NCBI GenBank assembly: GCA_964013405.1
Contig: CAXGWI010000072.1
Span: forward strand, 1 to 16,761
Source: an uncultured Myxococcales bacterium
GTDB lineage: Bacteria; Myxococcota; UBA4151
Direction: 5' to 3'
DNA: 16,761 nt
Shown here piece after piece: positions 2,067 through 7,271 of the stretch. A program made the translations under genes and the position numbers. The first letter of the stretch is position 1, and each line of letters begins with the position of its first letter. Below the pieces are notes generated by a model that ran no database searches, was not told where the DNA came from, and was given only the letters and a program-made list of their open reading frames with translations.

Positions 2067-5000
2067 ATGACTCGATTTAGCGTTTCGCTCTGTCTTTTCA
2101 CGTTGATTGCCTGCCCTCAGCAGGTTCCCGACCCTGTCGAGCCTGATGCTGGTCAGGCTCCTGTCGCAGACGCCGGTGCGGCCCCTGTTGATGGGGGACA
2201 AGCCCCCGCTGCCGACGCTGGTATCGCCGCGGATGCGGGTGAGGAGGTGGAGCCGGTCTGTCGCCCTGATTCCGAGCGTCTCAATGGTGTGCATCACTGC
2301 CGTCTCGACGAGCACTGCCCCTGCGGTGCCCACTGTGCGCTGGGTCGGTGCATCTATGAATGCCTCGATGGGGTTGAGGACTGTGACGAGGGCCAGCGAT
2401 GCACGCTGTTTGGACGCTGTGTGGAGGTGGCGAGTGAAGGGCCGATTGAGGACCCGAGTGGCGAAGATGAGGAGCAGGTTGCGGAGGAAACCGCCATGCC
2501 TGACCCGGCGCCTGTCGGCCGTATTCGCCTCGAGCGTCTTCGTTATCGTGTACAGGATGCAGACACGATCCTCGCTTTGCGTTTGACGGTCGAGGAAGCC
2601 GACGTCCCCGCTGTGCGTGTGGGTGAAGGGCGCGGCTTTCTGCAGGGCGAGGAGGATGAAAGCCTGCTCGCCGACGAGCCATTGCTCGTGAGTTGTAGCG
2701 GAACCGATGATGAGGATTTTGTCGATGAGTGTCGGCTTGAGGACCTGAGCGAGGGCAGCGAACACATCGTTTATCTTCGCCCCGGTGATGTCGAGGGCGA
2801 AGCGAATCGTTGGGAGGCATCCGTCTTTCACGGTTCGGTGCTGGAGACGCTGACGATCGAGCGGGTCGAGCCGGTACCGTTGCTGCCCGAGACGGGTCCG
2901 GTGACGGGCTCCTATGAGGGGAGCATTCAAGTCAGCGATGGCGAGGGGCGGGCCATGCTCGCCGTCCCGGTTCGGGCCGAGGTCCTCGAAGATGGCGACC
3001 AACTACGAATGAAACTCATCGATTCGCTGCGCATGCTCAGTGCGGACGGTGTCTTGTGGGGACAAAGTACGGAAACAGGTTTCACGTTCCGTCGGGACCA
3101 TTATCTCGGTGGTGAAGCCGAGGCGCTCGGGGACGTGGAAGTCCATAGCCAGTTGGAGAGCGCCAGCGCTCTCGCTGGCGGCGGTAAGGGGTGGCTGGGC
3201 GGCCGATTCCAGCTTCGAATCGCCGGCTGGTTGCCGGAGAGCCGGTATCTGGCCTGTTCCAACGCCCAGTTTCCTTGTCAGTTCGGGCAGCAGCACCCCT
3301 GCTGCGGCAACACTCGCGACAGCACCCATCTTTGGGAGCAGACGGTCGAGGCGGCCACGGTCGATCTGAAGATCTTTCGCCGTGGGCCCTTGCCTGATGG
3401 GAGCGAAGTCCGCGCCTTCGAAAATCACATGACAGAGAGTAACAGCCGGTTTGGTGACTTCCGAGAACGAATCTGGAGCGAGGATGCTCGCAGTCCGTGG
3501 GATCAAGTGGCCCAAGAGATCTTCGAGCTCGACGAGATCAACCCGGTCATCGACAGTCGGGCTGAGGACTGGGCGACACTCGCTGATGACAGCAGCAGCC
3601 TTTTGCGCTGCGAGACAGAGTTTATTGCGGATAATTATAGTTGTCGTGGTCCCAATGCCGGCAATTTTGGGCGCAACCTGCCAGCCTGCACAGACGCGGT
3701 GATCGCCGCCATGCAAGAGCGTTGTGAGCAATACTCGGCAAATCCTTGTTGGAGTGGCCCGGAAGCTCGAGACTCCCGGTGCATCCACAACTGTTTTGGC
3801 ATCGACCTGGGGGGCGATGGGCCGGCGCCTCTTACCCCGCGGCAGTATCGGACCCGTGACATGGAATTGGCCCAGGCCAGTCTTTGTGCGGAACGATTTT
3901 TCTGCTTCGAGCCTCCAGCCGGTGAAGCCTTTGCAGCGGAATCGAGCGGTCTCTACCAAAGGGTGCTGCCCATCTCTGGGGATCTCACCTGCGCCAGGCC
4001 GGGGGACAATTTCCGTGATCAGATTCCAACAGCCATCGGTTTGTTCACCAATGCGGATGCCCAGGAAGCCGAAGAAGAAGCGCTGAACGCCGGGCAAATG
4101 CTTGAAGCATGTTTTAGCGACCTCGACCGGGATCTCCCCGATCTGGCTGGGCGCGGGCCGATTTGGGACGGCGCGGATCTGCGTCGCGTCTTCCAAACAG
4201 AAGGGTGCATCGACCTCGCCCGGTTCTGGGCCAGTTTGCGCTGGGCCTCTGCCCCGGCCATGTTTGCGGCCATCGACCCGGCCGTTCGGCAGGCCGAGGA
4301 GTTGGGCGACCAGGGCAAGGCAAACGGGCTCTATTTGAGGCTCCTGACCCAGTGGCTTCAGTTACACCAGTTCTTGGCGACGGAGGGTTTGCAGGCCCAT
4401 CGCTTGGCCAAGGTGCTGCGGCAGGGCGAAGACAATATCTCGCCCACGGCCGTTCCCAACCTTGCCCGCTTGCGGCAGGTCCTCGCCGGGGCTTGGGACG
4501 TCTTTTTACGACCCCGTTTCGTCACGGGGTTGATGGGCTTGTCGCCCGCAGAACTGCGCGATGCAGATTACCGGCCGATCGTGTTTCCCCAGGTCAATCT
4601 CCAAGCCCGGGCTTTTCATGAGCAGGCGGTCGGCCTGCCGGTCTTCCTGGTTGAAGCCATGACCACCTACATGGAAGTGCTCGAAGCCGAAGGCGAAGAG
4701 GTCTGGATCAATGGCCGGCAACTTCAACGCCATCAGGGTGAGATCGCCGAAGCGGTCCGACAGAGTGTGTTGATGGAGTCGCTGGCTCAGCGGGTCTTTG
4801 AGCGGTCCGAGGTCGGGGACGCCTTTTGGGGCCCCCGTTACCTGAAGGCTCGGACCCAACTCAAAGCGGTCCGGGGTCGGGTGCTTCGGGTGCTCGACAA
4901 CATGATGGGCGATGGCAATCCCTTGGGCATCGAAGACAATGACCTACCCTTGTACTTTCGGGTTGATGACGCCGGCGATGTCGGCCGGTTCTCGGTCATC

Positions 5001-7271: not shown

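Follow-up and report, generated by a model that had tools for sequence, protein, structure and literature searches.

The Tc toxins known so far are soluble, are released by lysis, and act on animal cells as spring-driven weapons. The linker and the channel, together with the domain that binds TcB, are described as the conserved core of all five TcAs (PMC6795518), and the linker has been proposed as the driving force (PMC11435725). YenTc is reported to have no established signal and to leave the cell by lysis (PMC10847048). A polymorphic toxin class named 'TcdB/TcaC' has been defined by a signal peptide followed by SpvB, an integrin-like propeller, RHS, and a toxin (Zhang et al., 2012, PMC3482391); the main part of that text names no TcA-type partner, and 'TcdA' does not occur in it. 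In this study, we analyzed a contig of 16,761 nucleotides (CAXGWI010000072.1; hereafter the window, which is the contig in full) from an uncultured Myxococcales bacterium (assembly GCA_964013405.1; 3.9 Mb, 94% complete). It carries a single-copy gene, referred to below as the needle gene, for a 1738-amino-acid predicted lipoprotein; the predicted fold of its C-terminal half resembles that of the TcA channel and TcB-binding domain.

An AlphaFold model of residues 700-1738 (75 sequences; predicted local distance difference test (pLDDT) 85, predicted template modeling score 0.64) consists of a helical domain, descending helices in two sets with an insert between them, a tip, ascending helices, and a beta cap. 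A reading made earlier from the letters of the DNA (the sequence-only reading) had proposed a TcA-like channel with a TcB-binding-like cap and had named a Foldseek comparison with TcdA1 as a check. TcA matches did come first: when the model was searched against the PDB, 21 matches had E ≤ 1e-3, the best 20 of these 21 were all TcA (1e-8 to 1e-4), and the first non-TcA match had an E-value of 0.029. Re-alignment with VIA gave TcA chains in all of the top 16 rows (Z 13.6-17.1; for XptA1, a root-mean-square deviation (rmsd) of 4.3 over 267 residues) and mapped residues 955-1736 to TcdA1 2008-2516. The cap alone (1494-1736) could be aligned to TcdA1 2327-2516 (6l7i_A; Z 9.0, rmsd 3.2, 150 residues), and its template modeling (TM) score (target) in Foldseek was 0.53. 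Two TcAs led a wide structure search independent of Foldseek (Z 15.1 and 14.9), and TcA_TcB_BD clusters accounted for 13 of the 30 matches in a language-model search (score 0.93).

The motifs that had suggested this fold are present, in place and in order, in one intact open reading frame: DGNPLG (4911-4928), LPLYF (4944-4958), the hairpin (5925-6047), QWL (6324-6332), AYLAVRAAEYEF (6384-6419), IFSL (6555-6566), GLYGEYALFFP (7143-7175), IDL (7209-7217), and LRDVRLRFDFVS (7224-7259). They are more than chance resemblances, because most of them are nearly invariant across 120 aligned homologues. The first two had been equated with the TcA linker; DGNPLG..LPLYF instead aligns to TcdA1 ~2008, which is the start of the channel alignment and not the spring linker. 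A coiled coil, a hairpin, and a returning coiled coil had been described as following. The helical hairpin was recovered, whereas the descending helix proved to be broken by a domain of 176 amino acids. Across the family this insert is 87-256 amino acids long (median 175.5) and is the least conserved block (21%); clade C (see below) has only a short C..C loop at the site. The most hydrophobic Kyte-Doolittle 19-mer of the entire protein begins at residue 1314, inside the hairpin, and the family hydrophobicity profile over residues 700-1738 is maximal at 1319. A hydrophobic, small-residue, low-charge hairpin tip is retained family-wide, and in comparison with the closest relative (locus L001) the hairpin has 0.05 nonsynonymous (pN) and 0.83 synonymous (pS) differences per site. 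Ten cysteines of the C-terminal half are near-invariant (1048, 1084, 1093, 1114, 1198, 1225, 1265, 1359, 1580, and 1621), which is consistent with export to an oxidizing compartment. In the model the invariant Cys1265 and Cys1359 lie opposite each other across the channel hairpin, where they would be expected to form a disulfide.

Several results weigh against this assignment. Human TTYH ties with TcA in the wide structure search (Z 14.6), and helical bundles may reach Z 13-14 by chance. Global TM-scores to TcA are just 0.15-0.18; these poor values, and those for rmsd, arise because the monomer model bends the hairpin back into a four-helix bundle. By sequence, no significant match for the 1738-amino-acid protein was found in Pfam, NCBIfam, or the PDB, and Pfam gave no link to TcA in the protein or in 24 homologues scanned. 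A PDB search with two family profiles returned nothing significant, hhalign comparison of clades A-D with 70 canonical TcA C-terminal regions gave a non-significant best E-value of 0.011, and none of 30 block-wise pairs against canonical TcA, judged alongside reversed controls, was significant. The profile similarity to TcA_TcB_BD anticipated by the sequence-only reading was therefore not detected by Pfam, PDB profiles, or hhalign. The hairpin tips also vary widely, and some conserved charges occur in them.

In comparison with TcA (TcdA1, XptA1/2, YenA2, TcaB; PF18276), the protein has the same fold and order, from a post-linker motif through a helical hairpin to a TcB-binding beta domain, as well as a hydrophobic tip; the median distance from motif to cap, insert excluded, is 373 amino acids versus 355 in canonical TcA (74 and 40 rows scored). 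It differs in its lipoprotein signal, its invariant cysteine pairs, the 176-amino-acid channel insert, the low identity (about 10-16%), and the lack of TcB/TcC in its genome. Where TcA has a long spring linker, there is only a loop of ~8 residues (918-925). The loop before the motif is 7-20 amino acids long in 67 of the 75 rows scored, whereas the canonical spacer measures 67-92 in 58 of 84, a comparison in which helices were matched by order only and the block alignment was non-significant. Based on the lipoprotein signal, the cysteines, the insert, and the missing long linker, the protein was not classed as a member of TcA, and any likeness of its action to that of a TcA needle would be partial at most. 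ClyA-type tripartite alpha pore-forming toxins (AhlB, SmhB) likewise have a helical bundle with a hydrophobic hairpin, but the likeness is weak (Z 9.8, E 0.18), far below that of the TcA matches, and is confined to the bundle, with no counterpart of the cap. Bacterial teneurin-like proteins, the closest published analogue, have been described as Myxococcota lipoproteins (Sec/SPII predicted) with RHS/YD shells and immunity genes (PMC13018210); there the lipoprotein is the shell, whereas the protein studied here is a needle without a YD shell.

The lipoprotein signal proposed by the sequence-only reading is well represented among relatives of the protein. In a heuristic lipobox test, 126 of 174 homologues with 1480 or more amino acids scored positive, compared with 15 of 1044 internal windows; truncation or a wrong start is visible in many of the 48 negative homologues. 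The signal is thus predicted to be a family-wide feature. An acidic low-complexity tether follows the predicted signal peptide and Cys20. Amino-acid identity to the closest relative is 86% over the whole protein, with pN 0.087 and pS 0.77, which indicates that the needle gene is under strong purifying selection; pN/pS is given because the saturation of synonymous sites made a corrected ratio of substitution rates (dN/dS) impossible to compute. Short pieces of the gene are contained in four of four marine metagenome runs, and no single piece covers the whole stretch.

With residues 940-1738 as the query, 135 proteins were found among 7,988 candidates, and none of the 120 homologues listed had a Pfam domain. 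Sequence comparison thus assigns the needle protein to an unannotated Myxococcota family, which at 50% identity falls into 528 clusters. Species-representative genomes yielded 141 confirmed stretches, and 79 loci (clade A) were retained; almost all of their titles name Myxococcales, Myxococcota, Bradymonadales, or Deltaproteobacteria. The family profile was matched by 56 of the 401 genomes of a phylum sample. Cultured carriers in the window's group are Lujinxingia litoralis (DL240_17450), L. vulgaris (FRC98_17435), and Persicimonas caeni (FIV42_02705/FIV42_18000); in clade C there is Aggregicoccus sp. 17bor-14 (FGE12_06655). A full-text literature search, limited largely to open articles without their supplements, turned up neither an account of a lipid-anchored TcA-like protein nor any mention of five locus tags. 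In the part of the dbTC article searched, the terms 'lipoprotein', 'signal peptide', and 'Myxococc' do not occur (PMC7861908); the supplements of dbTC and of the polymorphic toxin study, which lay outside that search, may bear on novelty.

Three sister clades were recovered by a search of the phylum: B (~1810 amino acids), C (~1240), and D (~1800-2150). They are homologous to clade A (hhalign E 1e-122 and 1e-128, 4e-32, and 2e-12, respectively). A capsule gene encoding ~2000-2150 amino acids lies directly downstream of the needle gene in 16 of 16 clade-B, four of seven clade-C, and none of four clade-D loci; these loci were found via the needle gene, and one of the seven clade-C loci runs into a contig edge. 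When the search was started from 20 hand-picked SpvB-RHS loci, a clade-D gene was present in 14, three of which had seeded the profile. The capsule genes are TcB-TcC fusions (BC) with SpvB, FG-GAP, TcdB_midN, and RHS domains, a signal-like N-terminal stretch (by eye), and a variable C-terminus, examples of which include HNH, Ntox43, and PT-HINT; a strict RHS-core pattern matched few BC proteins and was not used. Eight small genes downstream of capsules were scanned; three match DUF4259, DUF4265, or DUF6843, five match nothing, and their position suggests that they may be immunity genes. This architecture, including the variable C-termini and the small downstream genes, is that of the 'TcdB/TcaC' class, although the window's own locus has no such toxin gene. 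The adjacency of sister-clade needles to signal-peptide TcB-TcC fusions with variable toxin domains suggests a lipid-anchored system of the Tc type that has yet to be described. The description of the protein as an orphan consequently applies to the window's group and not to the sister clades, whose pairing with Sec-exported TcB-TcC fusions had been missed.

For the window's group, orphan status now extends from the window, in which TcB/TcC genes are absent as had been noted, to the genome. No SpvB, RHS core, or YD shell was found in the 94%-complete genome, which gave one sub-threshold TcdB_midN match and two isolated RHS-repeat matches; comparison with BC proteins gave no match beyond repeats. 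As possible hidden partners, C202:2385-3545 (a short YD lipoprotein of 387 amino acids) and C6:64931-71785 (an Ig-repeat lipoprotein of 2285 amino acids with a terminal FG-GAP propeller) were ruled out, and the second RHS-repeat match, on contig C21, lies in a frame of 534 amino acids, too short for a capsule. A linked capsule gene occurs in none of the 79 clade-A loci, 53 of which offer at least 3 kb downstream. No SpvB match was found in 10 of the 26 top-scoring genomes (at least 760 bits; read by eye), namely the window's genome and nine others (completeness 89-98%). These 10 gave just FG-GAP-region or other short partial matches to the BC profile, with which the positive controls G060 and G134 gave full-length matches. 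Trees group A and B together versus C and D; the window's lineage falls inside clade A with FastTree (82 rows) versus a basal polytomy of A+B with IQ-TREE (36 rows). Loss of the capsule gene in the window's lineage is the simplest reading, but it is plausible only, because the trees disagree and their root depends on long branches.

Our preferred reading, held tentatively and at slightly less than an even chance, is that the protein forms a membrane-tethered ring that punctures the membrane of a touching cell without TcB-TcC cargo. As predicted from the lipobox and the near-invariant cysteines, the protein would be exported by Sec, lipidated at Cys20, and stabilized by extracytoplasmic disulfides. 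It could then be displayed on the outer membrane or on vesicles and assemble via channel and cap into a ring, which by analogy with TcA is probably pentameric. Target binding may fall to the head, Ig, barrel, and insert domains, judging from their folds and variability, after which the hydrophobic hairpin tips would insert and the pore would open, as the fold suggests. A cargo-free pore is feasible, because TcdA1 without TcB-TcC has been reported to form cation-selective channels (PMC6795518). The TcA spring is ruled out as the trigger, since there is no room for the linker; a jack-knife extension is the likely, if speculative, substitute, because the model bends the hairpin back at helix breaks beside Cys1265 and Cys1359. 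The protein probably originated as the A subunit of a Sec-exported Tc-like system that is intact in the sister clades and whose linked capsule gene is gone. A role in contact predation is plausible, since Bradymonabacteria, to which some of the carriers named above belong, have been listed as possible epibiotic predators (PMC12428579).

For the Myxococcota as a whole, the chances appear evenly balanced that the phylum has an undescribed Tc branch of Sec-exported, lipid-anchored, disulfide-stapled, spring-less needles, through which nuclease-type toxins would pass from signal-peptide TcB-TcC capsules into other bacteria, with accompanying immunity genes, the window's group being a cargo-free puncturing or bridging device in contact predation. 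If true, the lipid-anchored, Sec-exported, spring-less form, which occurs across predatory bacteria and often next to nuclease-bearing capsules, would extend Tc biology to bacterium-on-bacterium attack and would provide both a delivery route and the missing A subunit for signal-peptide SpvB-RHS ('TcdB/TcaC') toxins. The orphan form would represent a needle kept under selection without recognizable cargo, and the named cultured carriers make the proposal testable.

The alternative that survives best, although we consider it unlikely, is that the ring is still a translocon and delivers cargo whose gene lies elsewhere (a TcB-TcC capsule, unlinked or unassembled, or a non-RHS partner) and which would dock on the cap. 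The cap is the most conserved block (50% versus 34% for the hairpin), and its conservation is as compatible with a retained partner as with a structural role. It is also the better conserved part in canonical TcA (64% versus 50%) and in clade C (43% versus 26%), so that conservation need not imply a partner. A SpvB-type gene is present somewhere in 16 of the 26 top-scoring genomes, as compared with 168 of the 401 genomes of the phylum sample, although kin among them are not independent, and three genomes of the same family (G060, G077, and G085) hold a BC-paired paralogue. Pairing in trans may occur in many carriers, since 31 of 50 locus genomes searched (of 65 selected) have a SpvB-type gene elsewhere; every genome tested is incomplete. 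The lack of BC in the window's genome and in nine other top-scoring genomes speaks for a cargo-free device. In 16 of the 79 clade-A loci (e.g., L030:4279-6303, L044:5540-7675, L049:5823-7859), the needle gene adjoins that of a Gly-rich (PGRS-like) beta-helix lipoprotein without a Pfam match. This lipoprotein, eight of whose profile seeds came from these loci, might be such a partner, but it was not found in the window's genome. Two genomes, G016 (locus L028) and G230, were flagged as unpublished, and no conclusion rests on either; between them they contribute a single locus to the 79, a single row to alignment A2 and to the 82-row tree, a single genome to the 50 locus genomes, and one (SpvB-positive) to the 26 top-scoring genomes.

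We regard as improbable a channel in the producer's own envelope, or one bridging two outer membranes, whose role as a conduit or clamp would lie in feeding, export, or membrane exchange and not in attack. It has been proposed that epibiotic predators employ clamps, as yet unknown, between the outer membranes (PMC12428579), and such a role would suit a lipid-anchored protein with no spring and no recognizable pH lock, whose gene is followed by a flavin adenine dinucleotide (FAD) oxidoreductase gene and by no small immunity-like gene. The predicted channel arms, however, comprise 136 and 123 helical residues, a length similar to that of TcA and far above the need of one membrane, and the sister clades are linked to toxin capsules. 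Least probable of all is that the TcA fold has been repurposed as a scaffold, serving as a surface stalk or adhesin that shows variable binding domains and never enters a membrane: the position of the gene among Cys-rich-repeat surface genes, the four-helix bundle of the monomer model, and the missing spring would fit it, but the family-wide hydrophobic tip and the strong selection on the hairpin argue against it.

The coordinates of the needle gene and its predicted domains are given in Table 1. The sequence-only reading had described the first ~940 amino acids as Cys-rich. A Cys-rich head does exist, and there are 30 cysteines in the first 1000 residues, but the model of the N-terminal half (pLDDT 80) also contains a PapD/MSP-like Ig domain, an eight-stranded barrel, and helices, followed by the helical domain. 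Clade-C members match BACON_2/HYDIN Ig in Pfam. The barrel also resembles GrlR (Z 9.5) and is possibly a ligand or receptor binder. TcA was not among the matches listed for the N-terminal half model in two structure searches, though this half may still be related to the TcA shell, and Pfam gave no neuraminidase-like or ABC_toxin_N domain in the 1738-amino-acid protein. In clade B1 (L085-L089, L111-L117) an extra domain of ~190-330 amino acids lies inside the helical domain; the window's protein is without it.

Table 1. Predicted features of the needle gene (positions in the window).
Feature	Position	Strand	Basis
Whole gene; 1738-amino-acid predicted lipoprotein with TcA-like channel and cap	2055..7271	+	one intact open reading frame
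Predicted Sec/SPII signal peptide and lipid-anchor Cys20 (LIAC; lipobox 2103-2114)	2055..2114	+	heuristic lipobox
Cys-rich head, residues 69-123	2259..2423	+	model; common to sister clades
PapD/MSP-like Ig domain, residues 156-275	2520..2879	+	model versus FaeE: Z 10.1, rmsd 2.2 over 97 residues
Eight-stranded beta-barrel, residues 276-444	2880..3386	+	Z 10.9, rmsd 2.5 over 104 residues versus designed 8-strand barrel
Helical domain, residues 721-951, in place of last TcA shell lobe	4215..4907	+	model secondary structure
GNPLG..LPLYF motif, RF, and upper descending channel helices up to invariant Cys1048	4911..5198	+	model, structure alignment
Variable 176-amino-acid domain inserted in descending helix, between invariant Cys1048 and Cys1225	5199..5726	+	alignment
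Channel hairpin: descending helices, hydrophobic Ala/Gly/Ser-rich tip (5976-6029), ascending helices	5727..6419	+	model, hydrophobicity
TcB-binding-domain-like beta cap, residues 1494-1738	6534..7268	+	model; 50% mean identity

Possible further relatives were seen in the structural databases. In the ESM Atlas, ranks 1-3 are unnamed clusters of 737-938 amino acids, commonest in Verrucomicrobiota, which outscore the TcA clusters and are possibly further TcA-like families. A BFVD structure search with 4152-7268 gave one significant viral match (A0A481Z1I0, E 5e-7), an uncharacterized 1032-amino-acid protein of Mimivirus LCMiAC02, which may represent a TcA-like fold in the genome bin of a giant virus. 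Paralogues of the needle gene occur nearby or in tandem within one locus (L019:2-4477, L050:2-4882, L120:2959-12068). Clade-D loci (L125-L139) combine lipoproteins and SpvB-RHS fusions in several gene orders; in L125 and L134 a lipoprotein, that of L125 with a Gly-rich tail, stands between the clade-D gene and the BC gene. Several capsule genes are present in some genomes, with five full-length matches in G134.

The FAD oxidoreductase gene (7268-8863, +) encodes a phytoene-desaturase/carotenoid-isomerase-like enzyme, and its start overlaps the stop codon of the needle gene. Among the loci examined it adjoins the needle gene only in the window and in the closest relative, and for this reason it is likely not part of the system. 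Three genes for myxobacterial Cys-rich-repeat proteins (TIGR02232/DUF4215) are located at 2-1882 (-), 13516-15543 (-), and 15516-16760 (-), the first divergent from the needle gene. An 848-amino-acid protein (8877-11423, -) has no Pfam or NCBIfam match and no obvious signal peptide by eye; its counterpart in the closest relative is 87% identical. A small protein (11471-11845, -) matches PF05854 (E 1e-28), the MC1 family of non-histone chromosomal proteins, for which archaea are the best-known source. This protein is 99% identical over 87 amino acids in the closest relative.

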